Shown here: one piece after another, positions 1,148 through 63,970 of the stretch
How the letters are laid out: every line of letters begins with the position of its first letter
How positions within the stretch are numbered: position 1 is the first letter of the stretch
Origin: Squalus acanthias
Lineage: Eukaryota
Assembly (NCBI GenBank): GCA_030390025.1
Contig: CM059431.1
Coordinates: 127,164,001-127,228,000 of the forward strand
Reading direction: 5' to 3'
DNA length: 64,000 bases
Translations under genes and position numbers: made by a program
Notes under the pieces: generated by a model
What the model was told of the DNA's origin: nothing
Seen by the model: the letters and a program-made list of their open reading frames with translations, nothing else
Database searches by the model: none

Positions 1148-2065
1148 TCAGTAGCGGCAACAAGTGAGGTCGAGGGTGACTGTCTGGGTGCCGTACGTCC
1201 GGATTTCCGAGCCTTTAGCAGCAGCCAGCGCCGGTCCTCGTTCGCCCTTTTGGATGTCGAGGGAGGAGGCCGGGATGATGCTGTGCTGAGCCCCAGTGTC
1301 GCACAGGAACCGGCGGCCGGTTTTGTCATCCGTGACGAACAGCAGGGAGCCCGCGTGACCCACGGCCATCGCGGGGGCTGGTACGGGGTCGGACTTGAAA
1401 GAGCAGGGAGGTGTGCACCGTTGTGCCCTGGCGCCGAACCGTGCGTGGTAGTAACAGTGGTCCGGGTTAGTGGGGCGTGAAGGCCCCGTGGGCCTGGTGG
1501 CAGGCCCTTGTGGCCGCGTGGTGGCCAGTGAGGGGCGCGCCCAGGCATTGGCTGCCAGGTCCGGAGTGACGTTGCGGCTGGAGTGAGCGGACAGCAACTT
1601 GTCGGCCTCATCGGCCAGGGCTTCCAGGTTCGTGAGGCCGGACGCCACAATCGCTGGGCGGATGCTGAGAGGGAGCTGGCGGCTGAACAGCGTGCGGAAG
1701 AGGGATCCGGGTGGGCTCTCGTCGGTGAGGGACAGCATGTGGGAGAGGAGGTCTGACGGTGAGGCATCACCGAGGCCTGGAAGGTCGAGGAGGTGGCAGT
1801 TTCGCTGATATGCCGAGGCCGTAAATTTTTTAAGGAGCACTGTCTTGAGATGTGCGTACTTGCCTTCCTCTGGTGGGTTCTGCAGCATTGTCCAAACCTT
1901 CGAAACTGTGGCGCTAACGAGTGATGTGACGAGATAGTCGTACTTCGTCCCATCTGTGGTGATGCGTCGCAGCCGGAATCGAGATTCAGCTTGGAGAAAC
2001 CAGGCTTCGGGCTGGTTTTCCCAAAACTCCAGCAGTTTCACGGAAACTGTGTTCGTGTCCGCCAT
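1148..2065 (-). pseudogene. Gypsy gag-protease ORF ending at a premature stop; pol continues in broken frames to the window start
   Basis: 305-aa ORF in the track; protease-like sequence resumes after the TGA at 1148-1150 (WEFITAKVLSPLISADFL). Confidence 0.85.
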
Positions 2066-2108: not shown

Positions 2109-2344
2109 TGAGGCTGCCGCGAAACTCAAATTAAGGCTGAATCCATGTGTGTTAAACAAGAGACTTTTTAATCAACTGCATGGTCAAAATGGCTGAACAG
2201 AATGCTCCCAGAATTCTCTGGAAAAATCCTGAGGCCCCGCCCACTCCTGCCTTAAAGGTGAGGTGCCTTAAAGGGAAGGTGCATCGATATATTTTCCATG
2301 GACGGAAATGTGGATAATGCCCGTTTAGGTGGCGATCCGCCACA
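2109..2344 (-). repeat. 5' LTR (~236 bp) of the Gypsy element
   Basis: Minus strand reads TGTGGCGG...CAGCCTCA (imperfect terminal inverted repeat) and abuts the PBS on one side and CR1 sequence on the other. Confidence 0.8.
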
Positions 2345-2605
2345 CCCTCGCATTTCTGGTATCATCCTTGTAAATCTTCTCTGCACCCTCTCCAGTGCCT
2401 CTATATCCTTTTTATAATATGGCGACCAGAATTGTACACAGTACTCCAAGTGTGGTCTAACCAAGGTTCGATACAAGTTTAGTATAACTTCACTACTTTT
2501 CAATTCTATACCTTTAGAAATAAACCCTAGTGCTTGGTTTGCTTTTTTATGGCCTCGCTAACCTGTGTCGCAACCTTTAGTGATTTGTGTATTTGTACTC
2601 CGAGT
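2345..2605 (-). mobile_element. CR1 LINE ORF2 fragment interrupted by the Gypsy insertion
   Basis: LYRTLVRPHLEYCVQFWSPYYKKDIEALERVQRRFTRMIPEMRG, which stops abruptly at the LTR edge. Confidence 0.9.
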
Positions 2606-3774
2606 GCCCAAAGTATAAATTGAAGATATCCAGAGAAATTTTCAACTTAATTTCTTATTTTGTGAGATGTGTCTTGGAAAATAAGTTGACTCGTTAACAG
2701 GCAGATTCTTTAAGACAATTCAGAAGGGACATTTACAATGAACATAAGCCCATGAGGTTGACGCTGTGTAAGCATGTACTCATGGATAAACATTCAGCTT
2801 GCTCCTGCTGCTTTCTGTTCCTCTTTCCTGTTTCCTGTACAAATACCAGGAGGACAGTGTCTCTGATATGCCACTACAGGCATGGGTGCCCACTCCAAAT
2901 GACTCCATCCCTGGGATTTGAGAAGGGGTCAATAGCAAGCCAAATTGAAGGTGAAAGTCCTGCCCTGCAACCCTTTTGGCCCTTTAAAAGGATCTTGGAT
3001 TTTTATGCCAAATGTTAAAAAAGCGAGAATATAACAGGAAAATTATAGACCATTTCACCCCTGATGTTGCTACTTGTCCCCTTATTCTTTCCTCAGCCAA
3101 TTTATCATGTCTTTGTGGATTGGGAATCAACATAATTTGTTAAAGTCATTACACAAACCAGAGATTACAGCATAGTAATTACTGTTTGCGATATTAGCGT
3201 ATGAATGCTTAAAGGATTATATGACACTCCTCTGTCAGCTATTTTAACAGAGGCATTAATCTACTGATTTTAAATACGTTAAATGCTTCCATTAATATAG
3301 CAGACAAAGCATTCAAACAATGCTGTAAAATTTCCTACATTGATCTCATAAACAATAATTTTCATGCCGAATAGTTTGCAGTTTAATACAAACAGCTGTA
3401 AAATATGATAAAGTAAGGAACTAGAGATACGCAAAATATTAATGAACCAAATTTAAAATGTGATTTCAAAATATTGTAAAATATTAGCAGCCTCTCAGAC
3501 TGTTGACTCTGAAGAACAGACATGGCTAAAATCCTATGGTTGGAGTGAGTTTAATTTCTTACCTTTCCATCTTTGTGTACTGGAACTGTTACTGAACATT
3601 TCTTGGAAATTGCATAATGGTCTGTGAAAGGAATAGACTAATTGGGCGAGTGGTCTTTTCTTTACCATGTTTTTTTTATGTTCTTACCCCAATCTGTACA
3701 TTTACACATGTGCTTGCCAGGACTGTCACATACACCACATGACAGAAGTCAATCAAGTGAAAAATAATATTTCT

Positions 3775-4000
3775 TTTTATTCATTCTCAGGATATGGACG
3801 TCGCTGGCAAGGCCAGCATTTATTGCCCATCCCTAGTTGCCCTGATTTGATACAGCGGAGTGGCTTGGTCGGTCACTTTACATGGCAGTTAAGAGTTAAC
3901 CACTTTGGTGTGGGACTGGGATCATATATAGGTCAGACGAGGTAAGAACCAAAGGTTTCCTTCCCTATACGACACTAGTGAACTAGTTGGGTTTTTAACA
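3775..4000 (-). mobile_element. SINE-like non-autonomous derivative of LINE family B (5' body joined to the LINE 3' tail), 5'-truncated
   Basis: Reverse complement matches ~35570-35737 joined directly to the tail at ~37285-37360 (GGGCAATAAATGCTGGCCTTGCCAGCGA); junction near 3845-3851. Confidence 0.8.
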
Positions 4001-4434: not shown

Positions 4435-5302
4435 TTTTTTTTATTCATTCCTGGGATGTGAGCATCGCTGGCAAGGCCAGCATTTATTGTCCATTCCTAA
4501 TTGCCCTCGAGAAGGTGGTGGTGAGCCACCTTCTTGAACCGCTGCAGTCCATGTGGTGAAGGTACTCCCACAGTACTGTTAGGGAGGGAGTTCCAGGATT
4601 TTGATCCAGCGACGATGAAGGAACGGCGGTATATTTCCAAGTCAGGATGGTGTATGACTTAGAGGGGAACTTGGAGTTGATGGTCTTCCCATGCGCCTGC
4701 TGCCCTTGTCCTTCTAGGTTGCGTGTTTGGGAGGTGCTGTCGAAGAAGCCTTGGTGGGTTGCTGGAGTGCATCTTGTAGATGGTACACACTGCAGGCACG
4801 GTACGCTGGTGGTGCAGGGAGTGAATATTTAAGGTGATGGATGTGGTGCTAATCAAGCGGGCTGCTTTGTCCTGGGTGTTGAGCTTTGCCCTGGTGTTTA
4901 GCTTCTTGAGTGTTGTTGGAGCTGCACTCATCCAGGCAAGTGGAGAGTATTCCATCACAGTCCTGACTTGTGCCTTGTAGATGGTGGAAAGGCTTTGTGG
5001 AGTCAGGTGAGACACTCGCTGCAGAATACCCAGCCTCTGACATACTCTTGTATCCACAGTATTTATGTGGCTGGTCCAGTTAAGTTTCTGGTCAATGGTA
5101 ACCCCCAGGATGTTGATTGTGGGGGATTTGGTGATGGTACTGCCATTAAATGTCAAGGGGCGATGGTTAGACTTTTTCTTGTTGGAGATAGTCATTGCCT
5201 GGCACTTATGTGGCGTGACTGTTACTTGCCACTTATCAGCCCAAGCCTGAAGGCCATCCAGGTCTTGCTGCATGCGGCACGCACTGCTTCATTATCTGAG
5301 GT
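4435..5302 (-). mobile_element. LINE family B (CR1-group RT), 5'-truncated copy
   Basis: ORF 4659-5273 (WADKWQVT, ILGVTIDQKLNW, IYKAQVRTVMEYSPLAW) with the shared 3' tail and an A-rich end. Confidence 0.9.
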
Positions 5303-16667: not shown

Positions 16668-17843
16668 TCATTGGAATCGAAGTCTGATGAGGCGTTAACG
16701 GACAGCCCGTTCAGAAGGGGGATTGGTTGCCTGCCTCCTCCCTCCTTCCTCTTCCTCTTGCTCCTTTTCCTCTTCCTCCTCCTCCTCCTTTCCCTCGACT
16801 TCCTCCTGAAGTGGTCCTACAATCCCTGGTGGCAAAGGCTGTGCCCTCATGATGGCCAAGTTGTGGAGCATGCAGCAGACCACCACGAAATGAGACATCC
16901 ATTCTGGCATGTACTGGAGGGCTCTTCCCGAGCGGTGAAGGCAGCGGAACCGTTGCTTCAGTAGCCCGAAAGTCTGCTCGATGATGTTCCTGGTGCAAGC
17001 GTGGCTCTCATTAATAAAGTGCTGGGCAGGAGTGTTGGGGTTCAGGAGGGGAGTCATGAGCCGGGTGGAGCGCGGATAGGCCTTATCTCCGAGCGGCCAC
17101 CCTCGAGTTTGCTGTGGTGGCTGGAAGATTGCTGGCACACCGGATGACGCAGGATGAAGGCATCATGCTGCTGCCAGGATAGCGGGCATTGACCATCAGG
17201 AATCGCTGGATGTGGTTGCACAACAACTGCACATTGAGTGAGTGGTAGCCTTTGTGATTACATAAGATCTCGGGATTATAGGGCGCCTGGAAAGCCACGT
17301 GTGTGCATTCGATGGCACCCTGCGCCATTGGGAAGCCAGCTATTCTGGCAAAGGCACATGCACACTCGTCCTGCTTCTCTCTGCTCAGAGAGAAGACAAA
17401 ATAGTCCCTTCTCCTAGTGTAGAGAGCCTCAGTGACCTCCTGGATGCAGCGATGGACAGCGAACTGAGAGATGTTAGCTGTGTCTCCTGCTGCAGACTGG
17501 AAGGATCCGCTGGCAAAGAAGTTAAGGGCCAAGTTTACCTTGACTGCCAATGGGAGAGCCCTGTTCGCCCTGCTCTCAGGCTGCATGTCTAGTTGTAGGA
17601 AATGGCAGAGTTCTGTTACCACCTCCTTGATGAAGCAGAGCCTCTTAATACACTGCCTCCTCGCTTAAATGGATATAAGAGAAGTGCTCTCGGAAGACCC
17701 TAGGTGGGTAAGGCCTCCCGTTGAGAGCCCTCTTGGCCCTCCTCCTTCTCTGTCTGCGGGCATCATCTTGTCTTCTTCACTGCCTCCACTCCCTCTCCCG
17801 AAGATACTCAAGCAGTGAGGGGGACTGCCAGTAGACTCCCCAT
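16668..17843 (-). pseudogene. HARBI1-like DDE transposase of Harbinger B
   Basis: ALNFFASGSFQ, GAIECTHV (canonical GAIDxTH), KGYHSLNVQ, LGDKAYP, RNIIEQTFGLLKQRFRCL, CCMLHNL; several frameshifts. Confidence 0.93.
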
Positions 17844-26559: not shown

Positions 26560-28423
26560 ATATAAGTATATTAAGGGCAAGAGTATAACCAGGGAAAGAG
26601 TAGGGCCCATTCGGGACCAAAGTGGCAATCTGTGTGTAGAGCCGGAAGATGTGGGTGTGGTTTTAAATGAATATTTTGCATTTGTGTTCACTATGGAGAA
26701 GGACGATGTAGGCATAGAAATCAGGCAGGGGGATTGTGATATACTTACACAAATTAGTATTGAGAGGGAGGAGGTACAAGCGGTTTTAGCGGGCTTAAAA
26801 GTGGATAAATCCCCAGGCCCAGACGAGATGTATCCCAGATGTATCCCAGCATCTGCAGTATTTTGCTATCGAGATGTATCCCAGGCTGCTTTGTGAGGCA
26901 AGGGAGGAGATTGCAGAGGCTCTGATACAAATTTTCAGAACCTCTCTGGCCACAGGGGAGGTGCCAGAGGACTGGAGGACAGCTAACGTAGTACCATTAT
27001 TCAAGAAGGGTAGTAGGGATAAACCAGGGAACTACAGGCCAGTGAGCCTAACATCAGTGGTCGGGAAATTATTGGAAAAAATTCTGAGGGACAGAATTAG
27101 TCTCCACTTGGAGAGGCAAGGATTAATCAAGGATAGTCAGCATGGCTTTGTCAGGGGGAGATCATGTCTAACCAATTTGATTGAATTTTTTGAGGGGGTG
27201 ACTAGGTGTGTGGATGAGGGTAGTGCATTTGATGTAGTCCACATGGACTTCAGTAAGGCTTTTGACAAAGTCCCGCATGGGAGACTGGTCAAGAAGGTAA
27301 AAGCCCATGGGATCCAGGGCAATTTGGCACATTGGATCCAAAATTGGCTTAGTGGCAGGAGGCAGAGGGTGATGGTCGAAGGTTGTTTTTGTGACTGGAA
27401 GCCTGTGTCCAGTGGTGTACCACAGGGATCGGTGCTGTTTGTAGTGTACATTAATGATTTAGATATGAATGTAGGAGGTATGATCAGTAAGTTCACAGAT
27501 GACATGAAAATTGGTGGAGTGGTAAATAGCGAGGAGGGAAGCCTTCGGCTGCAGGATGATATCGACGGGTTGGTCAGATGGGTAGAACGGTGGCAAATGG
27601 AATTTAACCCTGAAAAGTGTGAGGTGACGCATTTTGGGAGGACTAACAAGGCTTGGAAATACACAATGAATGGTAGGATCCTAGGAAGGACAGAGGATCA
27701 GAGGGACCTTGGTGTGCATGTACATAGATCCCTGAAGGCAGCAGGACAGGTAGATAAGGTGGTTAAAAAGGCATATGGGATACTTGCCTTCATTAGCCGA
27801 GGCATAGAATATAAGAGCAGGGAGGTTATGATGGAGCTGTACAAAACGATAGTTAGGCCACAGCTGGAATACTGTGTGCAGTTCTGGTCGCCACACTATA
27901 GGAAGGATGTGATTGCATTGGAGAGGGTGCAGAGGAGATTCACCAGGATGTTACCTGGGCTGGAGCACTTCAGCTATGAAGAGAGACTGGACAGGCTGGG
28001 GCTGTTTTCCTTAGAGCAGAGAAGGCTGAGGGGGGATCTGATTGAGGTGTACAAAATTATGAGGGGCCTATATAGGGTAGATAGAAAGGAACTTTTCCCC
28101 TTAGTAGAGGGGTCAATAACCAGGGGGCATAGTTCCAAGGTAAGGGACAGGAGGTTTAGAGGGGATTTGAGGAAAAACTTTTTCACCCAGAGGGAGGTTG
28201 GAATCTGGAATTCACTGCCTGAAAGGGTGGTAGAGGCAGGAACCCTCACAACATTCAAGAAGCATTTAGATGAGCACTTGAAATGCCATAGCATACAAGG
28301 CTACGGACCAAGTGCTGGAAAATGGGATTAGAATAGATAGGGCTTGATGGCCTGCGCGGACACGATGGGCCGAAGGGCCTCATTCTGTGCTGAATAAATC
28401 TATGACTCTATCTATGACTCTAT
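26560..28423 (+). mobile_element. CR1 LINE (HER1-like), 5'-truncated
   Basis: RT ORF plus the 3' tail GATGGGCCGAAGGGCC...CTATGACTCTAT repeats. Confidence 0.95.
26874..28331 (+). pseudogene. CR1 ORF2 reverse transcriptase region (485 aa open)
   Basis: NYRPVSLTS, DFSKAFDKV, GVPQGSVL, KFTDD; lacks the endonuclease and the usual GPL after GSVL. Confidence 0.9.
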
Positions 28424-31931: not shown

Positions 31932-32080
31932 TATGTCTTTTGGGGAAGTTAATGAAATCTATCATCAGGGACAGAGTGACTGAGCATTTCAACAAGTATG
32001 AGCTGATCAAAGATAGTCAGCATGGATGTGTGAAGGGTAAGTCATGTCTGGCTAAATCTAGTTGAATTTTTTGAAGAGGT

Positions 32081-34743
32081 GGCCGTAGTATATAGGCCTC
32101 CTAATAGTTGCAACTCTGTTGGAAGAAGTATTAATCAGGAAATAGTTGGGGCATGTAATAAGGGAACAGCTATAATTATGGGGGATTTTAACTATCATAT
32201 TAACTGGACAAATCAAATTGGGCAGGGCAGCCTTGAGGAAGAGTTTATTGAGTGTCTTAGGGATGGATTTCTTGAGCAGTATGTAACTGATCCTACAAGG
32301 GGGCAAGCAACCTTGGACCTGGTCCTGTGTAATGAGTCTGGATTGATTAATAATGTCCTAGTTAAGGATCCCCTTGGAATGAGTGACCATAACATGGTTG
32401 AATTCCATATCCAATTAGAGGGTGAGAAGGTTGGTTCTCAAACAAGCATACTGAGCTTGAATAAAGGAGACTATGATGGCATGAGAGCAGAATTGATTAA
32501 AGTGGACTGGGAAAATAGATTAAAGGGTAAGATGGTACATGAGCAGTGGTGTTCATTCAAGGAGTTATTTTACAACTTTCAAAATAAATATATTCCACTG
32601 AGGAAAAAAGGGTGTAAAAGAAATGACAGCCATCCATGGCTAAGTAAAGAAATTAAAGAAAGTATCCAACTAAAAACAAGGACATATAAGGTAGCCAAAG
32701 TTAGTGGGAGGATAGAAGATTGGGAAGTCTTCAAAAGACAACAAAAAGTAACTAAAGGATTGATTAAGAAAGGGAAAATAGACTATGAAAATAAATTAGC
32801 AAAAAATATAAAAACAGATAGCAAGAGTTTCTATAGTTATATTAAAAGAAAAAGGGTGGTTAAGGCAAACGTAGGTCCCTTAGAGGATGAGACCGGGAAA
32901 TTAATGGTGGGAAACATGGAGATGGCAAAAATGCTGAACAAATATTTTGTTTCAGTCTTTACGGTAGAGGACAGTAAGAATATCCCAACACTGGACAAAC
33001 AGGGGGCTCTAGTGGGGAGGAGCTAAATACGATTAAAATCACTAAGGAATTGGTACTCAGTAAAATAATGGGACTCAAGGCGGATAAATCCCCTGGATCT
33101 GATGGCTTACATCCTAGGGTCTTGAGGGAAGTGGCAGTAGGAATTGTGGATGCTTTGGTAATAATTTTCCAAAACTCCCTGAACTCAGCAAAGGTCCCGG
33201 CAGATTAGAAAACTGCTAATGCAACACCCTTATTTAAAAAGGGTTGTAGGCAGAAGGCTGGAAATTATAGACCAGTTAGCCTAACATCTGTGGTGGGTAA
33301 AATTTTGGAGTCTATTATTAAGGAGACAGTAACGGAACATTTAGATAAACATAATTTAATAGGACAAAGTCAGCATGGCTTTATGAAGGGGAAGTCATGT
33401 CTGACAAATTTGCTCGAGTTCTTTGAGGACATAACGTACAGGGTGGATAAAGGGGAACCAGTGGATGTAGCGTATTTAGACTTCCAGAAGGCATTCGACA
33501 AGGTGCCACATAAAAGATTATTGCTCAAGATAAAAAATCACTGGATTGGGGGTAATATTCTGGCATGGGTGGAGGATTGGTTATCTAACAGGAAGCAGAG
33601 AGTTGGGATAAATGGTTCATTCTCGGACTGGCAACCAGTAGCCAGTGGTGTTCCGCAGGGGTCGGTGCTGGGTCCCCAACTCTTTACAATCATAATTAAC
33701 GATTTGGAGGAGGGGACCGAGTGTAACATATCAAAGTTTGCAGATGATACAAAGATGGAAGGGAAAGTAGAGAGTGAGGAGGACATAAAAAACCTACAAG
33801 GGGATATAGACAGGCTGGGTGAGTGGGCAGAGATTTGGCAGATGCAATACAATATTGGAAAATGTGAGGTTATGCACTTTGGCAGGAAAAATCAGAGAAC
33901 AAGTTATTATCTTAATGGCGAGAAACTGGAAAGTACTGCAGTACAAAGGGATCTGGGGGTCTTGGTGCAAGAAAATCAAAAAGTTAGTATGCAGGTGCAG
34001 CAGGTGATCAAGAAAGCCAATGGAATGTTGGCTTTTATTGCTAGGGGGATAGAATATAAAAACAGGGAGGTATTGCTGCAGTTGTATAGGGTATTGGTGA
34101 GACCGCACCTGGAGTACTGCATACAGTTTTGGTGTCCATACTTAAGAAAAGACATACTTGCTCTCGAGGCAGTACAAAGAAGGTTCACTCGGTTAATTCC
34201 GGGGATGAGGGGGTGGACATACGAGGAGAGGTTGAGTAGATTGGGACTCTACTCATTGGAGTTCAGAAGAATGAGAGGCGATCTTATTGAAACATATAAG
34301 ATTGTGAAGGGGCTTGATCGGGTGGACGCGGTGAGGATGTTCCCAATGATGGGTGAAACTAGAACTAGGGGACATAATCTTAGAATAAGGGGCTGCTCTT
34401 TCAAAACTGAGATGAGGAGAAACTTTTTTACTCAGAGGGTAGTGGGTCTGTGGAATTTGCTACCCCAGGAAGCTGTGGAAGCTACTTCATTAAATAAATT
34501 TAAAACAGAAATAGACCGTTTCCTAGAAGTAAAGGGAATCAGGGGTTACGGGGAGCGGGCTGGAAATTGGACATGAGTTTGAGTTCGGATCGGTGGCGGA
34601 GCCGAGTGGCCTGGTCCTGCTCCTACTTGTGTTCTTTAGAGTTGAGGTTGGATCAGATCAGCCATGATCTCATTGAATGGCGGAGCAGGCTCGAGGGGCC
34701 GATTGGTCTACTCCTGCTCCTATTTCTTATGTTCTTATGTTCT
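32081..34743 (+). mobile_element. Younger CR1 LINE with partial endonuclease and full RT
   Basis: VYRPP, MGDFN, SDH (EN; ORF 32079-33026), KFADD (RT; ORF 33290-34576), frameshift at ~33020, tail TTCTTATGTTCTTATG. Confidence 0.95.
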
Positions 34744-35397
34744 AGGTCACTAGCATGGTGAATTGGGGAATGCCTATAGATGCTATCTATATGGAGTTCC
34801 AGAGGCATTTGATAAGGTTCTACACAAGGGATTGTTAGTAAAAATGAGAGCGCATGGAATTGGAGGTAACCTTATGATATGAGTTAGAAATTGGTTGGGA
34901 GGGAGGAGACAGAGAATAGGGATAATGGAAATGTACTCTGATTAGCAGGATGTGACAAGTGATGTTCCCCAGGAGTCTGTACTGGGGCTTCAGCTTTTCA
35001 CCATATATAAGTGTGAGGTCATCAACTTTGGATCCATGAAAGGCAGATCAGAATTTTTTATTAATAACGAGAGACTAGGAACTGTGGAAGAGCAAAGGTA
35101 CTTGGGTGTCTAGGTACATAAATCATTAAAAGCGCGTGCACAGGTACAAAAAGTAATCACAAATGCTGATGGAATATTGACCTTAACTCAAGAGGGTTGG
35201 AATTCAAAAGTGAGGAAGTTATTCTTCAGTTGTATAGAGCTTTGATGAAACCCCGTCTGAAGAATTGCATTTAGTTCTAAGCACCATAGCTCAGGAATGA
35301 TATATTGGCCTTGAAGTGGGTACAGCTCAGATTCACTAGAATGACACCAGGCCTTAAAGGGTTAAATAATGAGAACAGTTTGCATAAGTTTGGCTCT

Positions 35398-37361
35398 GGT
35401 GGGAGAACGGTAGCATAGTGGTAATGTCACTGGGCTAGTAATCCAGAGGCCTGGACTAATGATCCAGAGACGTGAGTTCAAATCCCACCATGGCAGCTGG
35501 GGAATTTAAATAAATCTGGAATAAAAAGCTAGTATCAGTAATGGTAACCATGAAACTATTGGGTTGTCATAAAAACCCATCTGGTTCACTAATGTCCTTT
35601 AGGGAAGGAAATCTGCCATCCTTACCTGTGGGTCTGGAGTCACATATAGGCCATACCAGGTCCAGGTCAGATACCCACAGCAATGTGGTTGACTCTTAAC
35701 TGCCCTCTGAAATGGCCTAGCAAGCCACTCAGTTGTAACAAACCGCTACGAAAGACAATAATAAGAATGAAACCGGACGGACCACCCGGCATCGAATTTG
35801 GCACCGGCAAAGGACACAGCAATGGCACAACCCAGCCCAGTCGACCCTGCAAAGTCCTCCTCACCAACATCTGGGGACTTATAGTCGGGAAGGAGTGGCC
35901 CTGGGAGTCCTCAACATTGACTGCGGACCCCATGAAGTCTCATGGCTTCAGGCCAAGCATGGGCAAAGAAACTTCCTGCTGATTACCACCTACTGCCCTC
36001 CCTCAGCTGATGAATCAGTACTCCTCCATGTTGAACACCACTTGGAAGAAGCATTGAGAGTAGCAAGGGCACAAAATGTACTCTGGATGGGGGACTTCAA
36101 TGTCTCAGTTGCACCACTGCTGGCCAAGTCCTGAAGGACATAGCTGCCAGTCTGGGCCTGCAACAGGTGGTGAGAGAACCAACACGAGGGAAAAACCTAC
36201 TTGACCTCGTCCTCATCAATCTACCTGTCACAGATGCATCTGTCCATGACAGTATTGGTAGCAGTCATTGTGGAGAGGAAGTCCTGTCTTCACACTGAGG
36301 ACACCCTCCATCGTGTGTGTGGCACTACCAGCCTGCTAAATGGGATAGATTCAGAACAGATCTAACAGCCCCAGGACATCACTGCAGGAGTTCCTCAGGG
36401 CAGTGTCCTCGGCCCAACCATTTTCAGCTGCTTCATCAATGACCTTCCCTCTAACATAAGGTCAGAAATGGGGATGTTCTCTGATGACTGCACAGTGTTC
36501 AGTGCCATTCACAACTCCTCAGATAATAAAGCAATCCATGCCCACATGCAACAAGACCTGGACGACGTTTAGGCTTGGGCTGATAAGTGGCAGGTAACAT
36601 TCGCGCCACAGAAGTGCCAGGCAATGACTATCTCCAACAAGCGAGAGTCTAACCACCGCCCTTGACATTCAACAGCATTACCATCGCCGAATCCCCCACC
36701 ATCAACATCCTGGGGGTCACCATTGACCAGAAACTTAACTGGACCAGCCACAGAAATACTGTGGCAACAAGAGCAGGTCAGAGGCTAGGTATTCTGCGAC
36801 GAGTGTCTCACCTCCTGACTCCGCAAAGCATTTCCGCCATCTACAAGGCTCAAGTCAGGAGGGTGATGGAATACTCTCCACTTGCCTGGATGAGTGCAGC
36901 TCCAACAACACTCAAGAAGCTCGACACCATCCAGGACAAAGCAGCCCGCTTTGAACATTCACTCCCTCCAACACCGGCGTACCGTGGCTGCAGTGTGTAC
37001 CATCTACAAGATGCACTGCAGCAACTTGCCAAGGCTTCTTTGGCAACACCTCCCAAACCCGCGACCTCTTCCACCTAGAAGGACAAGGGCAGCAGGCGCA
37101 TGGGAACATCACCACCTCCAAGTTCCCCTCCAAGTCACACACCATCCTGACTTGTAAATATATCACCGATCCTTCATCGTCGCTGGGTCAAAATCCTGGA
37201 ACTCCCTACCTAACAGTACTGTGGGAGTACCTTCACCACACGGACTGCAGCGGTTCAAGAAGGTGGCTCACCACCACCTTCTCAAGGGCAATTAGGGATG
37301 GGCAATAAATGCTGGCCTTGCCAGCGATGCCCACATCACATAAAAATGAATTAAAAAAAAA
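35398..37361 (+). mobile_element. LINE family B copy with a tRNA-derived 5' head, EN and RT remnants (internally deleted) and an A-tail
   Basis: Head with A/B boxes, then VLLTNIWGL, TTYCPPS, MGDFN (EN), GVPQGSVLGP, FSDD (RT), the 3' tail and poly-A. Confidence 0.88.
35411..35485 (+). promoter_or_regulatory. RNA polymerase III type-2 internal promoter (A box TAGCATAGTGG 35411-35421; B box GAGTTCAAATCC 35474-35485)
   Basis: Matches the TRGCNNARYGG and GTTCRANNC consensus at tRNA-like spacing. Confidence 0.8.
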
Positions 37362-44601: not shown

Positions 44602-47600
44602 CTACAAATCCAGTTTAATAACAGGTGTGCGGAGCGTTCCTGATCTCCTTACAGAAGGTTTTGGTGTTGAACCAATTTTCGGGCTGTTTTGTTTTGGTTC
44701 CGAACTCAAAGATGATCCTGTTTCTATCTCAGACTTGTTTGAATCTAGTACTTCAGTTACTGAAGTATGAACTGAGTCAAACTCATGTATGAGTTCATGA
44801 TCAAGTGGTTGACGATCATTTCTTGGTTCATCGCTAGCAGAGATCATCTGATCTACATGAACACTTCGGATTTTGTCACCAATTTCAACCAAATATCTCT
44901 TGGTTCCACCAACCTCTACTGTGGTTCCTACATCCCACTTGTGTGCACTCGACTTGCCAGGGGGACTGAGAACACGAACACACTCGTTTTGTTTGAAACT
45001 GCGTTCTTCCTGATTGGTGTCATAATAACGTTTCTGACTCAACTGTTTCTGTTCAACTCTTGAGGCCAAATTTGTTTGAACAAGACTCAATCATGTTCTC
45101 AATCTCCACTTCATCAAGAGTTCTGCTGGGGTATGTCCAGTTGTAGTGTGCGGAGTAGTTCTGTACTTCAGCAAGAAACTTGCCAAATGTTGCTTCATGC
45201 TGAGTCCCGAACAACCCCGCAACACTTGCTTTTTGAGAGCTTCTTTCACTATTCTGACTGATCTTTCGGCTGCTCCATTTGAAGCTGGATGATATGGTGG
45301 AACGAGAATGTGTTTGATACTGTTCCGTTTCATGAATTCTTAGAATAGAGCACAACGGAACTGAGGGCCATTGTCAGAAACAAGCTCTTCAGGTAAGCCA
45401 TGACATGCAAAGATTGACCTCAACTCATCTATGGTATATTCAGTTGTAGTATTTGAACCCATGGGGGAAAAATTGAGTTGCACCCCCTTTAGGGCGCTAA
45501 CTTCGCCGGGCCGCTACTGGAAGAGCCCCACCTCCCTCTTGGGGCGCTGTGGCATGTCGCGCCGCGGTATTGCAGGCCTTCCTCCCCTTCTTAAAGGGGC
45601 CTTGCGCAGCGTGACCCGGGGCCCAGCTGGGCCACCGGGGATCGGAGTGCTGGCAAAAGAGCCTGGCACTCAAGAGAAGTGCCGGGCTCATGGAGTGCAG
45701 CCGGCACTCCGCAGGGGGGTGGGTCAGGAGGCTGGGGACGGCAGCAGAGGCAGGTGCTGGCAGGCGGCCAGCAACAAAAATGGCCACCCAGCACCTCGCC
45801 TTTAAATAGCGCCGCCCCGGCCACAGGTAGGCCCCCATTGACCCCATCGGACATAGCGTCCCGCGGTAAGTCAGGGGGCGCTACTGAAGATCGTGGCCGG
45901 GGCGCAAGCGGGGTGCTGTGCATGGTGATGATGTCATCGCCGGTGGCGCAGCACCACGGGGCGCTAACGGTTACCGCCTCCGCTAACCTCCCGCTGAATT
46001 TCGCGGGAGGCGTTGGCAGCAACGCGCCCGGGCGCTAGTTGCTTTGCGCCTCCCGTTAGCGCCCTCTTAGGGCGCTAACGGGAGGCGCAAAGCAACCGAA
46101 TTTTTCACCCCCATGTGTTTAACTTCAATTCACTCTGAGTGACTATCTACAAGTACCAGGAAATATTCATTTGCTTTCTCACATGTACTGTCTGAAAAGG
46201 TCTACTTGGCCATGACATGGGTTGTAGTGGAGTTTAGGGTGGTTTGTTTCTGCAATTTTGGCAAATGCTGCATTTGCTGACAAGTGATTCAAGATCACTG
46301 TCCAATCCAGGCCAGTAAACAAAGCTTCTTGCAATTGATTTCATACTAATGATCCCTGGATGTTCAGTATGAAGTTCGACTAGAATTCTATCTCTCAAAG
46401 AAGAAGGTACCACCACTCTGTTTCCCCACTTGATACAACCTTGCTCACAAGACAAGTCAATACAATGGTTATGGAATGGTTTCAACTCTGTGTCCGTACA
46501 CTGATCAGTCCACCCAGTCAAGGTGTTTTCATACTCTTTTCAGTACTGAGTCCTTTTGAGTCTCATCTGCAATCTCAGTTGCATTCACAGGAAAGTCTCT
46601 GTCAACTGCACCTGGCGTGAAAATCGCACCTTCACTCCCAACACACGAGTCCTGATGTGGCAACCTGGACAAGGCATCTGCGATTGCGTTTTGCTTTGAA
46701 GTGCGATATTCAATCATGTAGTCATATTGTGACAACAACACTGCCTAATGTTGCATTCTTGATGTGGCCATTGTAGGGATGGCAGATTTGGCCCCAATAT
46801 TGTTAGGAGCGGTTTGTGATCGGTTATCAGGGTAAACTTTCTGCCGATCAGGAACTTTTGGAATTTCTTGATTCCAAACACTATGGCAAGTGCTTCCTTT
46901 TCAATTTGCGCAAGGTTTCTTTCGCTCTTTGTGAGGGTTCGCTATGCGAACGCGATTGGGTTCTCTTGGCTGTCATCCATTATGTGGCTTATGACAGCTC
47001 CCACACCATAGCGAGATGCATCACACGCTAACTTAGGCTCACCCTCTGTGTCGTAGTGCACAAGTAGAGCATCACTAGAGAGACTTCTCTTACAAGCATC
47101 GTAAGCTTCCTGTTGCGCTTTCGTCCACTTCCACTGAACATTCTTCGTGAAGAGCTCGTGCAATGGAGCTAACATGGTCACAAACTCAGGTAAGAAACAT
47201 GCGTAGTACTGGACCATTCCAAGGAAAGATCTTAACTCAGCCACGTTTTGTGGCTTTGGAGCATTGATGACAGCATCAACCTTTTCCTTAACTGGTTGCA
47301 AGTCATTTTCATCAACTTTCAAACCAAGGTACACAACCTCAGGCTGCACAAAAGCACATTTGCTGTTTTTCAATTTGACATTGTGGGCAATCAACCTTTG
47401 AAGCACTATATCCAACACTTCTAGATTTTCTTCCCCGCCGTTTGTTGCGATCAGCACATCGTCTTGATTGCATAAGCAATTTGGAACTCCTTGCAAAATC
47501 TTATCCATCGTAGCCTGGGGGAGAACTTTACACCATACGGCAGCTTGGTGAATGAATACATTCCCTTGTGTGTGTTGATAGTGGGATACTGTTGACTCTC

Positions 47601-48307
47601 TTTGTCAATATTCAGCTGAGCGTAAGCATGCGACAGGTCAAGCTTGGAGAAAAGCTTTGACCCAGATAGTGCTGCATACAAATCTTGCGATGTACTTAAT
47701 TGCTACTACTTATCATCAACTGCTTGGTTGATAGTAACTTTGTAGTCACCGCACAAGCGAACAGTTTTGTCTGCTTTGGGCACTACCACAATCAGGGTAG
47801 CCCATTCACTTTTGTCAGTTTTTGCTAGCACTCAGTTTTCTCTGAGCTTCGCTAGCTCTTCCTCCACCTGACTTTTCAACGCATAGGGGACCGGCCTTGC
47901 CTTACAATAGACGGCTTCGCGTTGGACTTGATGCGGATATGCGCGCCATACCCAGTGGTGCCCTCATAACTGTCTGAGAACATGCTTTCATACTTGTTCA
48001 GCATTGTGTCGAGTCAGTTCTTTGAAGCATCTACACTGAAGATGTTTTTCCAGTCTATTTTTAACTTTCTCAACCAGTCTTTGCCCATGAGAGTTGGCCT
48101 GTTGTTGTAGCTCGCTACAATAATAGGCAGCTTTACTGACTGGCCATTGTGTTGAACTGTACATTCCATTTGTCCACATGTCTCTAGGATTCCTCCGGAG
48201 TAGGTTTTTAACTCTGTGGTAATCTTTGTAAGTAGTACTTGATTAAACTTACTCTCATATGTGTCCTGACTCATGATAGAGCAGTCCACCGCAATGTTGA
48301 TACACAT
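44602..48307 (-). pseudogene. Gypsy pol (protease, RT, RNase H, integrase), multiply frameshifted
   Basis: KLDLSHAYAQL, NQDDVLI, LACDASRYGVGAV, ADALSRLP, HTEHPG...CSIC, PYHPASNGAAER. Confidence 0.92.
45464..46112. mobile_element. Young GC-rich Harbinger MITE inserted in the Gypsy integrase
   Basis: TIRs GGGGAAAAATTGAGTTGC / GCAACCGAATTTTTCACCCCC; duplicated ATG (or CAT); removing it restores EVKHMGSNT. Confidence 0.92.
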
Positions 48308-49624: not shown

Positions 49625-51252
49625 TTCATTTTTTATTTGTTCCCAGATGTGGGCGTCGCTGGCAAGGCCAGAATTTATTGCCCATCCAAAATTGCCCTTG
49701 AGAAGGTGGTGGTAAGCTGCCTGCCTTCATGAACCTCTGCAGTCCTTGTGGTGAAGATACTCCCACAGTGCTGTTAGGGATTTTGACCCAGTGACGATGA
49801 AGGAACGGCGATATATTTCCAAGTCAGGGTGGTGTGTAAGTTGGCAGGGTACTTGGAGGTGATGGTGTTCCCATATGCCTGCTGCCCTTGTCCTTCTAGG
49901 TGGTAGAGGTTGTGGGTTTGAGAGGTGCTGCTGAAGAAGCCTTGGCGAGTAGCTGCAGTGCCTCTTATAGATGGTGCACCTTGCAGCCATGGTGCGCCAG
50001 TGGTGGAGGGAGTGAATGTTGAAGGTGGTGAATGGGATACCAATCAAGTGGGCTACTTTGTCCTGGATGGTGTTGAGCTTCTTGAGTGTTGTTGGAGCTG
50101 CACTCATCCAGGCAAGTGGAGAGTATTCCATCATATCCTGACTTGTGCCTTGTAGATGGTGGAGAGTTTGGGGAGTCAGGAAGTGAGACACTCACCGCAG
50201 AATACCCAGCCTCTGACTTGCTCTTGTTGCCGCAATATTTATGTAGCTGGTCCAGTTAAGTTTCTGGTCAATGGTGACCCCCAGGATGTTGATGGTGGGG
50301 GATTCGGCGAAGGTAATGCCGTTGAATGTCAAGGGAAGGTGGTTAGACTGTCATTTCTTGGAGATAGTGATTGCTTTGCACTTGTGTGGCATGAATGTTA
50401 CTTGCCACTTATCAGCGCAAGCCTGAATGTCGTTCAGGTCTTGTTGCATGCGGGCATGGACTGCTTCATTATCTGAGGAGTTGCGACTGGAACTGAACAC
50501 TGTGCAGTCATCAGCAAACATCTCCACGTCTGACCTTATGATGGAGGGAAGGTCACTGGTCATTGATGAAGCAGCTGAAGATGGTTGGGCCTAGGACACT
50601 GCCCTGAGGAACTCCTGCAGCGATGTCCAGGGGCTGAAATGATTGACCTCCAACAACCATAACCATCTTCCTTTGTGCTAGGTATGACTCCAGCCAGTGG
50701 AGAGTTTTCCCCCTGATTCTCATTGACTTCAATTGTACGAGGGCTCCTTGATGCCACACTCGGTCAAATACTGCCTCGATATCAAGGGCAGTCACTCTCA
50801 CCCCACCTCTGGAATTCAGCTCTTTTGTCCATGTTTGGACCAAGGCTGTAATGAGGTCTGGAGCCGAGTGGTCCTGAGCATCAGTGAGCAGGTTATTGGT
50901 GAGTAAGTGCCACTTGATAGCACTGTCGACGACACCTTCCATCACTTTTGATGACTGAGATTAGACTGATGGGGCGGTAATTGGCCGGATTGGATTTGTC
51001 CTGCTTTTTGTGGACAGGACATACCTGAGCAGTTTTCCACATTGTCGGCTGGATGCCAATGTTAAGCCTGTACTGGAACAGCTTGGCTAGAGGAGCGGCT
51101 AGTTCTGGAGCACAAGTCTTCAGCACGACAGCTGGGATGTTGTCGGGTCCCACAGCCTTTGCTGTATCCAGTGCGCTCAGCCGTTTCTTGATATCATGTT
51201 GAGTGAATCAAATTGGCTGAAGACTGGCTACTGTGATGGTGGGGACCTCAGG
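49625..51252 (-). mobile_element. LINE family B copy (RT through 3' tail)
   Basis: GPDNIPAVVLK, NYRPISL, DIEAVFDRVWHQG, GVPQGSVLGP, MFADD, shared tail. Confidence 0.93.
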
Positions 51253-51254
51253 AG

Positions 51255-62122: not shown

Positions 62123-63462
62123 GTCTGGGAGCAAGTGGTGTACTCAGAGGCCTTCCAGTACCAGCCAACATCTTCCCAAAGTCCAGAAGTACTCCCTGCA
62201 CACTTTAACAACTTTTTAAATGTCTTCCAGCAACCCAGTACTCCTACAAACACTGCAAGAGCCAGTACAAGAGAAATAATTAACTTACCTGCAAGTTGGA
62301 TGTGTCCCTTTAAATAGCACGTATGGGGGGTCCCTCATGCAGCTGAACGCATGTTCAGCTGTCCGTGTTTAGGAGAGGGCATTGATTGGAGTGGCGACAT
62401 CCAATATGACAGGTCGTGTGTCAAATCTGTGTTACACGCTGACTGACGTCACGATCTGCCTACTCTGCATACTGCCGGCGTGCGCACATCCCGCCCACGC
62501 TATCATCTCAACAAGACAGCGAACAGCGCGGGCTGCACCAGAGGTGGGCCAATGCGAGGCGGACCCCATTTTTTTGTCCAAACTGGCCTTAACTACCGGT
62601 GCTAAGGTGCTGAATTTCGCAGCCTTTGTTCCAATGACTCCACAAATTTCCTGTACAATTCTGAAAGCTTCTTGTTGCTGTTAACTGTTTATTAAGTAAT
62701 AAACAATGCCCTCAGCCCCACCAATCACACTCCTATACTCCCTTTGGATGGAAGGTATCTCTTCCTGTTGGCAGATAAAGACCAGAGGCAATGATCTCAA
62801 TCAGATCATTTACCATTTATCCGTAAGCCAAGCCAATGACTGTAAAAGTTGGAAACTCCTGCACCCCAATATGCTGGATGCATGCAGGTGTCATCCCTCT
62901 CAAAGGCTTCCTTACCCAATCTGCCTAACAAAGGAGAGACTGGGATTACTGACCCTTTGCTTGGATATGCTTCCATTTCAACTGCTACACTATCCAGACA
63001 TTTTACACTGATCTTACATTAGCACACATGATAATCTGATGTCATAGCACTCCGACACTGTGACATGAACAACACTACGTTAGACATCATTGATATTGCA
63101 ATGCCTAGCAACCAACTACTGTTAACACTTCTCATTATGGGCTGGCTTCTGGTTAATGCGGTTGAAAATTGAAACATGGGCTTCCAGCAGAGCAGATGCT
63201 ATGCTGACTGTGTGAGTGCTCAGCTTTGTGCTTCTCGAAATGAAATCTAACCCTATCTTCACTTTATACCAGCAATTAAATGTTGTTTTATATCGGAAAT
63301 CTGCCAAAGATGATTTCAGATAAACAAGTCATTCCTGAATGCCAGCACCAAGAACACTGCAAAATAAACAATCTTGCTTACAATTTCCACAGATGTTCTC
63401 CAGTAGGAAGCTGTTGATACATAGGAATATAGGAACAGGAGCAGGCCTATTTAGCCTGTCGA

Positions 63463-63970
63463 TTCCACAACCAATGGATCAGATCAAAGCTCTGCAGTCC
63501 TGCCACAGCCAGTTGTGAATGGTGGTGGACAATAAAACAACTAAAGGGAGGAGGAGGCTCCATGAACATCCCCATCCTCAATGTTGGAGGAGCCCAGCAC
63601 GCGAGTGCAGAAGACAAGGCTGAAGCGTTTGCAACCATCTTCAGCCAGAAGTGCCGAGTGGATGATCCATCTCGGCCTCCTCCTGTGGTCCCCACCATCA
63701 CAGAAGCCTGCCTTCAGCAAATTCGATTCACTCCACATGATATCAAGAAATGTCTGAGCGCACTGGATACAGCAAAGGCTATGGGCTCCAACAACATCCT
63801 GGCTGTCATGCTGAAGACTTGCGCTCCAGAACTAGCCGCGCCTCTAGCCAAGCTGTTCCAGTACAGCCAAAACACTGGCATCTACCCGACAATATGGAAC
63901 ACTGCCCAGGTATGTCCTGTCCACAAAAAGCAGGACAAATCCAATCTAGCCAATTACCGCCCCATCAGTC
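63463..63970 (+). mobile_element. LINE family B internal fragment
   Basis: DKAEAFATIFSQK, KAMGSNNI, CPVHKKQDKSNLANYRPIS. Confidence 0.9.

Follow-up and report, generated by a model that had tools for sequence, protein, structure and literature searches.

In textbooks and in the available text of PMC10886601, LINEs are treated as transcripts of RNA polymerase II (Pol II) and RNA polymerase III (Pol III) heads are found only on short, non-coding SINEs, with Pol III limiting length. There, Pol III is considered poorly processive and SINEs are put at under about 700 bp. The same text describes Cassandra, Helenus and Ajax (TRIMp3) as LTR elements with Pol III promoters that are 311-1263 bp long, non-coding and non-autonomous, and argues that their autonomous partners need Pol II, given the processivity of Pol III. 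The available part of PMC3747384 lists the HE1 SINE and the HER1 LINE as a pair with a common 3' tail, and presents UnaL2/UnaSINE1 and ZfL2-2 as cases of L2-clade LINEs that have tRNA-derived SINE partners and a common tail. In SINE2_Gav/RTE-11_AMi and Bov-tA/BovB, the SINE consists of a tRNA head, an RTE 5' UTR and an RTE 3' UTR, and only RTE and Vingi 5' regions are reported as contributors to SINEs in the accessible sections of PMC5786205. The origin of conserved SINE bodies is left unexplained in the excerpts of PMC5786205 and PMC6887750 that were available. Chimeras of U6/L1, tRNA/L1 and Alu/L1 made by template switching are described in the part of bioRxiv 10.1101/2025.02.02.635956 at hand, where the tRNA/L1 chimeras number 21 loci and are mostly tRNA halves, mostly antisense.

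Here, a coding LINE has passed on a SINE head through thousands of copies, and no Pol III terminator interrupts its 3.3 kb. The initial annotation had pointed to a LINE with a tRNA-type head at 35398..37361 of the window (the whole 64-kb stretch of DNA that was analysed), and this observation is confirmed as real. The literature that we searched holds no description of a LINE starting with a tRNA-derived head; Repbase and Dfam lay outside this comparison.

Results

Structure of the window locus

The locus is best explained as a decayed, internally deleted copy of a CR1/L2-like LINE family of ~3.3 kb (family B), with a single ORF encoding an APE endonuclease and a reverse transcriptase (RT) (Table 1). 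When the window sequence was rechecked, all coordinates given in the initial annotation held, including those of the A box TAGCATAGTGG at 35411-35421 and the B box GAGTTCAAATCC at 35474-35485. Relative to full copies, the window copy lacks 174 nt at about 35880-35883 and about 1.1 kb, comprising the linker and the N-terminal RT, at about 36367. Blastn of the full copy L038 against the window places its positions 642-1171 on 35883-36369 and 2275-3293 on 36365-37360. A further rearrangement, at 35626-35661, is an inversion private to this copy. An in-frame TAA stop lies directly upstream of the long frame, the family stop TAG is at 37293-37295, and the tail contains AATAAA at 37304-37309 and a terminal A-run at 37353-37361. 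The sole TTTT of the copy (36421-36424) falls within the part for the C-terminal RT and C-terminal domain. The bases GGTGGGA at the 5' extreme stand before the usual family start, (G)GAACGGTAGC, and either were added without a template or belong to the element itself as its beginning.

Table 1. Coordinates of the window locus, of other family-B copies and of the short SINE form within the 64-kb window.
Feature	Position	Strand	Basis
G-rich extra 5' bases, GGTGGGA	35398..35404	+	5'-end comparison, 14 + 20 loci
tRNA-derived head with A and B boxes	35405..35497	+	Rfam RF00005, ARAGORN
SINE-like body, remainder of the family 5' UTR	35498..35735	+	Alignments with other copies
Start of the long frame and N-terminal APE endonuclease	35736..36134	+	Pfam Exo_endo_phos_2 / Exo_endo_phos on relatives
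Remaining endonuclease region, up to the second internal deletion	36135..36369	+	Blastn of L038 against the window
C-terminal RT and C-terminal domain	36365..37295	+	Pfam RVT_1 on homologous stretches of other copies
3' UTR/tail (GGGATGGGCAATAAATGCTGGCC...), common with the SINE form	37296..37361	+	Tail comparison with the SINE form
Family-B copy, 5'-truncated, 3' 0.87 kb	4435..5300	-	Sequence alignment
Family-B copy, 5'-truncated, 3' 1.6 kb, one sense T4	49646..51254	-	Sequence alignment
Family-B internal fragment reaching the window end	63460..63970	+	Sequence alignment
Short SINE form, 5'-truncated copy	3790..3997	-	LINE 5' UTR ~179-330 joined straight to the LINE tail

Four family-B copies lie in the window, one at 35405-37360 (+) and three listed in Table 1, and only the first of these extends to the 5' end, as the initial annotation had cautioned. 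Its count of two sense-strand TTTT (T4) runs in the four copies was reproduced (0, 1, 1 and 0 in window order), and the LINE at 26560-28423, said to have ten or more, has 12.

The Rfam tRNA model RF00005 matches 35410-35489 with 26.3 bits (E = 0.0022), and both the D-arm (A box) and the T-arm (B box) are intact in this match. Because the score is slightly below the Rfam gathering score of 29, a default Rfam scan is empty. ARAGORN called a single tRNA-like gene in the window, at 35425-35497. The variable-arm region of the head is extended by a 22-nt insertion (about 35448-35469). Among 80 metagenome relatives, ARAGORN, which is insensitive and finds only 1 of 14 family-B heads, called no tRNA-like gene; a regular expression for the A and B boxes, which recovers 7 of the 14 decayed family-B heads, matched twice, both times within ORFs.

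The head-to-ORF junction recurs across the genome

Head, body, ORF and tail have been retrotransposed together as a single RNA, thousands of times. A query across the junction (35640-35900) gave 726 first-look candidates, and among the best 40 that were scored, all 39 non-self matches cross the junction (window 35673-35880), at loci on many contigs with unrelated flanks. In this junction-selected sample, 9 of 29 copies begin at query positions 4-10. A second sample consisted of 20 copies selected by the APE region alone. All 20 have the same 5' region as far as each extends; four begin at GAACGGTAGC, two more begin within 27 nt of it, and the remainder are truncated at scattered points with unrelated flanks. 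Full-length copies begin at (G)GAACGGTAGC, within a few bases of tRNA position +1 (14 + 20 loci), where the starts cluster, and 5' ends as a whole are spread over element positions 1 to 500 (20 copies, unrelated flanks). A full-length copy with a different 5' UTR or with an ORF1 was not seen.

The family is also uniform along its length. In 10 copies, the aligned segments are 84-93% identical to L038 all the way from head to tail, and divergence from the majority sequence is nearly equal in the 5' UTR (3.97%) and the ORF (3.95%). Contigs of other sequencing runs cross the junction as well, for example a contig of run X1 at 1267-1448 of L037, and the contigs of runs X1, X5, X10 and X18 cover all 30 bins of L037:801-4404. 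These contigs are mostly short (most of those listed about 135-220 nt, some up to 719 nt), and their depth increases toward the 3' end in four of four runs. No target-site duplications were evident at the nine copies with both ends located, and their absence is usual for CR1/L2-type elements. Across the UTR/ORF junction, variants at 49 sites with the minor allele in at least four copies, mostly CpG transitions, gave a mean r2 of 0.035.

There is strong support for a 5' end that belongs to the family itself and consists of the tRNA-type head and the SINE-like body, followed by one ORF with no ORF1. The structural half of the initial annotation, a single-ORF LINE starting with a tRNA head, stands on the recurrent junction, the one frame and the lack of an ORF1.

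A short SINE form shares the 5' module and the tail

The 5' module and the tail of the LINE occur together in a short SINE as well, which is older. This form consists of the head, a conserved-looking body and the LINE tail, and the tail of the LINE is the same in kind as that of the SINE. The junction between SINE body and tail recurs, with all of the best 40 scored matches out of 1431 candidates spanning it. When 12 fetched loci with this junction were aligned to the LINE 5' majority, the body was common to both forms up to about ...CAGTTGTA. Free SINE copies are 80-90% alike, and diagnostic differences set the LINE-linked 5' module apart from them. The 3' UTR contains AATAAA and copies end in variable A-runs, while the 5' UTR contains AATAAA at 118 and 129 and ATTAAA at 114. 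Element positions 301-450 form a CpG-dense patch, with 11 CpG and an observed/expected ratio of 0.99, compared with 0.45 overall.

One long frame with no family-wide start ATG

The full unit spans 3.2-3.3 kb and comprises the tRNA-like head, the SINE-like body, one APE+RT frame and a short tail. The majority sequence (3302 nt) has one open frame of 973 codons, preceded by about 355 nt that make up the head and body, with no ORF1. Of 11 translated fragments, two matched Pfam Exo_endo_phos_2 and Exo_endo_phos, and six matched RVT_1 (five above the 29.6-bit cut-off; best E = 4.7e-40).

The initial annotation had taken the ATG at 35767-35769 as the start of this frame. That assignment fails, as this ATG is in frame with the endonuclease only in the window copy, via a private 1-nt insertion; in 38 of the 46 natural copies measured, the matching ATG lies 80 nt from the reference codon and out of frame. 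The first 286 codons of the majority frame contain no in-frame ATG and 8 upstream ATGs precede the ORF. Relatives have a Met just upstream of the corresponding endonuclease motif. An in-frame ACG lies three codons downstream of the upstream stop. A programmed -1 frameshift that would lead from the out-of-frame ATG to the APE frame was set aside, no slippery site of the form X XXY YYZ being found by eye between that ATG and the first endonuclease motif of the majority sequence. Because the ATG at 35767 is not shared by the family, unconventional translation or proteins supplied in trans weigh more than had been assumed.

Shared non-CpG variants are enriched for synonymous changes (34/89 versus 205/762, Fisher P = 0.019) and depleted at codon position 2 (P = 0.015). 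From this pattern we infer that the shared variants reflect weak purifying selection and that the ORF was probably still used during the spread of the family. Among the best 107 scored copies, none has an open frame of at least 900 aa, the maximum being 821, and the family may be extinct in this genome.

Oligo-T runs and Phe codons are scarce

The majority sequence contains no T4 in 3302 nt, as had been suggested for the consensus, and uninterrupted natural copies contain 0-2 each. In the comparison with codon-preserving shuffles that had been proposed, the T4 count is borderline (0 versus 1.8-1.9, P = 0.11-0.14). The mean T4 count is 1.86 under a synonymous-codon shuffle (P = 0.107) and 1.42 under a dinucleotide shuffle (P = 0.21); zero T4 by itself is weak evidence for avoidance of T-runs. 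TTT occurs 5 times in the ORF versus 13.3 expected from the synonymous-codon shuffle (P = 0.001 to 0.003 by shuffle type), in a test that is over-dispersed, with 3 of 31 control LINE ORFs at z <= -2.69. Over the whole majority sequence there are 7 TTT versus 25 under an iid model, and A4 is normal (13 versus 14.5).

The comparison with other LINEs points in the same direction. The observed/expected ratio for TTT is 0.38 versus at least 0.74 in the 31 control LINE ORFs, and Phe, at 1.8%, is the lowest of 100 (99 relatives: minimum 2.1%, mean 4.1%). Each of 29 related LINE ORF regions contains 5-44 T4, with 0 in none, and the two other LINEs in the window contain 12 and 11. Judged from sequence, avoidance of T-runs appears at the level of TTT, in the low Phe content and in the comparison with 31 other LINE ORFs.

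Discussion

Which polymerase reads the family

Transcription of the family by Pol III is plausible from these sequence features, with chances close to even. In the mechanism that we propose, the complete tRNA-derived SINE head and body make up the family 5' UTR, and the A and B boxes would form an internal promoter from which Pol III makes the full-length template. A sense strand cleared of oligo-T, with no T4 and with few TTT and Phe codons, would let Pol III proceed over about 3.3 kb. Taken jointly, the SINE module as LINE 5' UTR, the internal Pol III promoter and the oligo-T-cleared sense strand make a reading that is quite possible, if somewhat short of an even chance. The frame would be translated unconventionally because it has no in-frame AUG, and the in-frame ACG is one candidate start; alternatively, the protein may be supplied by other transcripts. 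The strongest version, an autonomous coding LINE whose 3.3-kb Pol III transcript is both genomic and messenger RNA, purged of oligo-T and Phe and translated without an AUG, we consider rather unlikely. The 24 sequencing runs listed include none on record as RNA, and the contigs of X1, X5, X10 and X18 carry neither starts, strand nor expression.

Several observations count against Pol III. The T4 count of zero is within the shuffle range, and 3 of the 31 control LINE ORFs are also TTT-poor. A long AUG-less frame stands behind the 8 upstream ATGs. The AATAAA of the 3' UTR and the A-run ends also fit Pol II polyadenylation.

It is possible, tentatively, that the family is instead a Pol II LINE with an exapted SINE 5' UTR. 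Here, an internal Pol II promoter would start at the same point, the head and body would have been captured once, by template switching or by recombination through the common tail, and the poverty in T and Phe would be a quirk of the lineage. The T4 count inside shuffle expectation, the strong TTT deficits of the three control ORFs and the signals at the 3' end all agree with this, as does the CpG-dense patch, and all known LINEs are taken to be transcribed by Pol II in the portion of PMC10886601 available. However, such a promoter must initiate exactly at tRNA +1 to keep the head through thousands of copies, and eight upstream ATGs before an AUG-less ORF fit cap-dependent scanning poorly. The AATAAA and ATTAAA motifs in the 5' UTR also speak against Pol II, and the depletion of T-runs and Phe is the most extreme of all LINEs compared.

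A non-autonomous "long SINE" is improbable. It would consist of the head and body fused to a LINE RNA without a start codon, transcribed from the head and copied in trans by the proteins of an autonomous partner with a common tail. The ORF would then be a passenger, and a short burst would be the sole reason why it is intact in the consensus. The retention of a 973-codon open frame in the consensus argues against a passenger, and the synonymous enrichment and the depletion at codon position 2 point to selection on coding during spread. The purge of Phe and TTT within the ORF likewise implies long coding evolution under a T-run constraint. A head-less partner with the same ORF was found in 0 of the 20 APE-selected copies, a sample that a rarer or more diverged partner would escape, and the best 40-107 scored genome candidates are all family B. 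On the other side, the existence of the short SINE form demonstrates that the tail can be used in trans, and a passenger ORF would accord with the 286 codons lacking an in-frame ATG, the nearby out-of-frame ATG of 38/46 copies, the Met that relatives have upstream of the same motif and the count of 0 intact copies among the 107 best-scored.

That a LINE inserting site-specifically into SINE copies mimics a SINE-preceded LINE is very unlikely, although the SINE form is older and common in this genome. Upstream of copies truncated within the ORF, at element positions 421, 439, 458 and 500, the DNA is unrelated and not SINE, and no SINE remainder follows the tail in 8 of 9 copies with the tail motif located (the ninth, L032, has no terminal A-run following the motif). 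The SINE-like and ORF parts are equally diverged in each copy, while free SINEs are only 80-90% alike, and the diagnostic differences of the LINE-linked module contradict the idea further. A chance SINE beside a LINE at the window locus, or an assembly artefact, would suit the single window copy that reaches the 5' end and has a negligible probability, being refuted by the same junction at 39/39 other scored loci, which are spread over many contigs and have flanks unrelated to one another, and by contigs of other runs that bridge it.

If the family is read by Pol III, an autonomous element would have a new route of expression, independent of Pol II promoters and silencing, which would bear on the maximum length of Pol III transcripts and on the translation of tRNA-headed RNA. 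If the autonomous Pol III reading is true, the divide between Pol III non-coding SINEs and Pol II coding LINEs is not absolute, and the conserved SINE body of the short form is a working LINE 5' UTR. If Pol II reads the family, either the LINE took its 5' UTR from its own parasite or the conserved SINE body is a LINE 5' UTR; this case bears on the origin of conserved SINE bodies.

Comparison with known systems

In the family, one polyprotein contains the RT and, ahead of it, an APE-type endonuclease domain, and the 5' ends of copies show the scattered truncation, unrelated flanks and 3'-ward increase in depth of a LINE. The family lacks the ORF1 upstream of the pol ORF that is typical of CR1, and its RT is 30-32% identical to two CR1-like RTs in the window; identity to the best database relatives is 47%. 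Full-length copies open, like SINE2 elements, with a tRNA-derived head that contains A and B boxes; they have a LINE-derived 3' tail, and the sense strand of the majority sequence is free of internal Pol III terminators (T4 or longer). The 3.2-3.3 kb and 973-codon frame of the family set it apart from SINE2 elements, which are short (about 100-700 bp) and non-coding. A LINE that targets SINEs would leave SINE sequence upstream of truncated copies and after the tail; here the upstream DNA is unrelated and the remainder is absent.

UnaL2 and ZfL2-2 resemble the LINE described here in length, both being about 3.3-3.6 kb, and in a tail that is common with a tRNA-derived SINE. They are stringent-type LINEs with a single APE+RT ORF and no ORF1; their 5' UTR is their own, and their ORF starts with an ATG. 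We know of no report of a tRNA head on the UnaL2 or ZfL2-2 LINEs. The short form and the LINE may be HE1 (V-SINE) and HER1 of sharks and rays. HE1/HER1 combine a tRNA-derived SINE and a CR1-like LINE with a common 3' tail, and the short form here has the same layout. This likeness is one of description, and a tRNA head at the start of HER1 is unstated in the available text of PMC3747384.

The short form also fits the bipartite model of Kojima 2018, with a head, a LINE 5' UTR and a LINE 3' UTR. In the SINEs of that model the body is the 5' UTR of the partner LINE and the tail its 3' UTR, the same relation that we see between the short and long forms. However, those partner LINEs are without a tRNA head, whereas here the head is on the coding LINE itself, in every copy long enough. 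Their partners are RTE and Vingi elements, and the LINE here is CR1/L2-like (Exo_endo_phos_2; 30-32% to the CR1-like RTs in the window).

The TRIMp3 elements are alike in that the transcript of a Pol II-type class of retrotransposon starts with a Pol III promoter derived from a small RNA. They are short, non-coding and non-autonomous, whereas the element here is coding and 3.2-3.3 kb long. In the L1 chimeras, too, a single retrotransposition event has placed a small Pol III RNA in front of LINE sequence, and by analogy template switching of this kind is a plausible origin of the first head-bearing copy. Those chimeras are one-off, dead insertions with variable junctions, whereas the element here has spread as a family with one and the same junction.

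The family-B copy in the window

We re-read the window copy of family B, a ~3.3-kb single-ORF (APE+RT) LINE with a tRNA-type head, at 35398-37361(+). The order of head, body, ATG, APE-RT and tail described in the initial annotation holds, with boxes and coordinates in agreement. The Rfam tRNA model aligns to 35410-35489 through a D-arm, an anticodon arm, a 22-nt variable-region insertion and a T-arm (26.3 bits, E 0.0022). Because this score lies just below the gathering score of 29, a default Rfam scan gives no tRNA match. The only tRNA-like gene that ARAGORN finds in the window is also located at this head.

Relative to full copies, the window copy lacks 174 nt at ~35880 and ~1.1 kb at ~36367, and it carries a private 36-nt inversion at 35626-35661, where 27/29 loci match on the minus strand. 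It is nested in another CR1-like LINE, 32034 to ~37700(+). The host segments are 32034-35397 and 37362 to ~37700(+), the 3' part resuming directly after the family-B A-run; host frames encode APE (32034-33026) and RT (33209-34576), and the host has 11 sense-strand runs of four T (T4) in 3.4 kb.

Features of the window copy, of the family-B unit and of the rest of the window
Feature	Position or size	Strand	Basis
A box TAGCATAGTGG	35411-35421	+	sequence
B box GAGTTCAAATCC	35474-35485	+	sequence
SINE-like body	~240 nt, 3' of tRNA-like head	+	sequence
ATG	35767	+	sequence; APE and RT coding remnants downstream
Short tail with A-run	ends 37361	+	sequence
Family-B 5' UTR	~355 nt	sense	head and body
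Family-B open frame	973 codons, stop to stop	sense	Pfam Exo_endo_phos_2 / Exo_endo_phos and RVT_1
Family-B stop TAG	within ...CAATTAGGGATGG...	sense	majority sequence
Family-B 3' UTR	~55 nt with AATAAA	sense	majority sequence
Family-B 3' end	...CGAATAAAAAAA(n)	sense	copy comparison
ORF fragment, weak DDE_Tnp_4 match	17083-17664	-	24.2 bits, just below cut-off
LTR-type retroelement fragment	46942-47604	-	RVT_1 and RT_RNaseH_2 (RT and RNase H)
GC-rich stretch (62%), strong GC skew	1-2000		long open frames on minus strand

Elsewhere in the window, the fragment at 17083-17664(-) is probably a remnant of a PIF/Harbinger-type transposase. The long minus-strand frames of 1-2000 have no Pfam match.

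Head, body, ORF and tail recur as one unit

We searched the 3.7-Gb assembly with a 261-nt query across the head-body/ORF joint and scored the best 40 of 726 first-look candidates. All 39 non-self matches among these extend over the junction, covering window 35673-35880. In the 29 non-self loci that were extracted, the match to the window copy continued upstream to varying points, starting at query positions 4-10, the head start, in nine. The junction therefore recurs at independent loci, the check that the initial annotation had asked for, which rules out a chance SINE-LINE chimera at this locus.

For a sample independent of the junction, a 401-nt APE query taken from a full copy gave 2384 candidates, and the upstream DNA of 20 matches was examined. 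As far as it reaches, each copy has this family 5' region (20/20). Four begin at GAACGGTAGC, two others begin no more than 27 nt from there, and 14 are 5'-truncated at scattered positions from 70 to 500; DNA beyond the copy ends is unrelated in all 20. Full-length copies with a different 5' UTR or an ORF1 had been named as evidence against the proposal, and neither was seen upstream of these 20 copies. TSDs, looked for at family-B copy ends, were not evident.

Aligned to the full reference copy (L038), ten further near-full copies extend over its 3.3 kb, with aligned segments 84-93% identical. The 3302-nt majority sequence was built from 11 copies that lie 3.1-5.8% away from it; near-full copies diverge from it by 3.97% in the 5' UTR and 3.95% in the ORF. 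This equal divergence, in copies aligned end to end, indicates that head, body, ORF and tail are copied jointly as a single RNA. A LINE that targets SINEs is contradicted, since truncated copies have no SINE upstream, no SINE remainder lies downstream of the tail, and the SINE-like and ORF parts are equally diverged.

Two local features of the unit were also observed. A CpG-dense patch spans the ORF start (element 301-450, window ~35700-35850; 11 CpG, o/e 0.99, compared with 0.45 for the whole element), and the 5' UTR contains polyadenylation-type hexamers (AATAAA at 118 and 129, ATTAAA at 114).

The open frame and its start

Family-B RT is 30-32% identical to two other window LINEs and at most 47% identical to any sequence in a large protein database. 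Database relatives are proteins of 930-990 aa on contigs of 3.2-3.8 kb, and so share this compact layout with a single ORF. The longest open frame in 107 scored genomic matches to an RT fragment is 821 aa, and none of these matches was an intact copy. Shared non-CpG variants are richer in synonymous changes than singletons (34/89 vs 205/762, P 0.019) and underrepresented at codon position 2 (P 0.015). These data suggest selection on the frame during the spread of the family.

The ATG at 35767, initially annotated as the ORF start, is not a family feature. It is in the APE frame only in the window copy, owing to a private 1-nt insertion; the distance from this ATG to a reference codon is 80 nt, out of frame, in 38/46 natural copies and divisible by 3 in 3/46. 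In the majority frame, codons 1-286 include no in-frame ATG and the remaining 687 include 17; out-of-frame ATGs (11 and 3) are not depleted in the first stretch. A natural copy that we examined likewise has an AUG-less open frame from the upstream stop through to the APE motif. All 74 relatives of similar length have 1-11 Met in the corresponding stretch, and relatives have a Met start just ahead of the LTN.RGL motif. An in-frame ACG three codons 3' of the upstream stop could conceivably serve as a near-cognate start. The 5' UTR holds eight ATGs. At family level, the in-frame AUG desert is seen at window 35739-36134 and at loci L031-L044.

Family B avoids oligo-T on the sense strand

The suspicion that the consensus might have no T4, the Pol III terminator, was borne out: the majority sequence has none in 3302 nt, with A4 normal (13 vs 14.5 expected), and uninterrupted natural copies have 0-2 T4. 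Against shuffles of the kind that the initial annotation proposed, the absence of T4 is weak evidence. Because the strand is very poor in T and TT, shuffles yield few T4: the mean was 1.42 by dinucleotide shuffle (P(0) 0.21), 1.86 by synonymous-codon shuffle of the whole frame (P(0) 0.107) and 1.78 by codon-order shuffle (P(0) 0.139). TTT is clearly depleted, with 7 observed vs 25 expected under an iid model (Poisson P 2e-5) and, in the ORF, 5 vs 13.3 by synonymous shuffling (P 0.001; codon-order shuffling P 0.003). The shuffle test is over-dispersed (z <= -2.69 in 3/31 control ORFs), and by shuffle TTT obs/exp is never below 0.74 in control ORFs (n=31) and is 0.38 in family B.

The depletion also shows against related elements. 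In 29 long related LINE ORF regions from metagenomes, T4 ranges from 5 to 44 (median 19, none with 0), and TTT obs/exp is 1.15 at the median and 0.47 at the lowest, compared with 0.28 for family B; two other window LINEs have 12 and 11 T4. Phe makes up 1.8% of family-B residues, less than in any of the 99 long relatives (mean 4.1%, minimum 2.1%) or in the three other window LINE ORFs (3.9-4.7%). We conclude that family B does avoid oligo-T in a strand-specific way and is unusual in this, although the T4 count taken alone does not prove it.

A short SINE form shares the 5' module

At window 3790-3997(-), LINE 5' UTR ~179-330 is fused straight to the LINE tail. This body-tail joint is spanned by all 40 scored of 1431 candidates, at only 80-90% identity. 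Most of twelve loci examined consist of head, body to ...CAGTTGTATC and then LINE tail, and they can be told from the LINE-linked 5' module by diagnostic positions of their own. These copies represent a short and older SINE form, and the 5' module of the LINE thus belongs to a SINE lineage of greater age. Two origins are conceivable: capture of the SINE module by the LINE, or descent of the SINEs from an earlier LINE that already carried the head.

All LINE-linked heads have the 22-nt insertion (~35448-35469); short SINE copies differ, some with and some without it (L146 and L153 vs L148-L150, L155 and L156). The insertion resembles a local duplication and could date the split of LINE-linked from free heads. 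Contigs from four different organisms (runs X1, X5, X10 and X18), aligned to the family-B locus L037:801-4404, cover the whole LINE and several distinct body-to-tail joints; family B and its short forms are therefore common to several related organisms.

Transcription of family B

The unit of one RNA has its 5' end at tRNA +1 and its 3' end at the shared tail. Presumably an internal promoter sets this start: transcription from the flank would carry flanking DNA along, and initiation further downstream would drop the head. The canonically spaced A and B boxes would be a ready-made internal promoter of exactly such kind, and reading through 3.3 kb by Pol III would call for just such an oligo-T purge. 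On this evidence we lean towards Pol III synthesis of the family-B template. The fuller proposal, a Pol III element whose ORF is used, is tentative: structure (head, single ORF, recurrent junction) and TTT/Phe depletion favor it, but the T4 count is weak and the annotated ATG private. The title of Gunnery & Mathews 1995 suggests that Pol III transcripts are able to act as mRNA. A 2026 abstract states that some yeast pre-tRNAs are capped.

A Pol II reading of family B is possible though less likely. Passages of Kojima 2024 (PMC10886601) treat non-LTR elements as Pol II transcripts and element length as limited by Pol III processivity; on the other side stand the start at tRNA +1 and the oligo-T avoidance. 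A non-autonomous 'long SINE' made by Pol III would share that start, and is improbable given the signs of selection on the frame.

Comparison with known elements

As far as our searches reach, the tRNA head would be a lineage-specific acquisition. ARAGORN found a tRNA-like head 5' of the ORF in 0/80 metagenome loci that encode relatives (sensitivity on decayed family-B heads 1/14), and an A/B-box pattern gave two matches in the same loci, both within ORFs (sensitivity on family-B heads 7/14). We found no LINE family with a tRNA-derived 5' head in the literature; Repbase/Dfam may already record such a structure. A table in PMC3747384 places HE1, a V-SINE, and its partner LINE HER1 in sharks and rays, and tRNA/L1 chimeras are described as one-off events in bioRxiv 10.1101/2025.02.02.635956. 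In Kojima 2018 (PMC5786205), the LINEs whose 5' UTRs gave rise to SINE bodies are RTE and Vingi elements only, and they are themselves head-less. Family B differs from the LINEs described there in that the LINE itself carries a tRNA-derived head.
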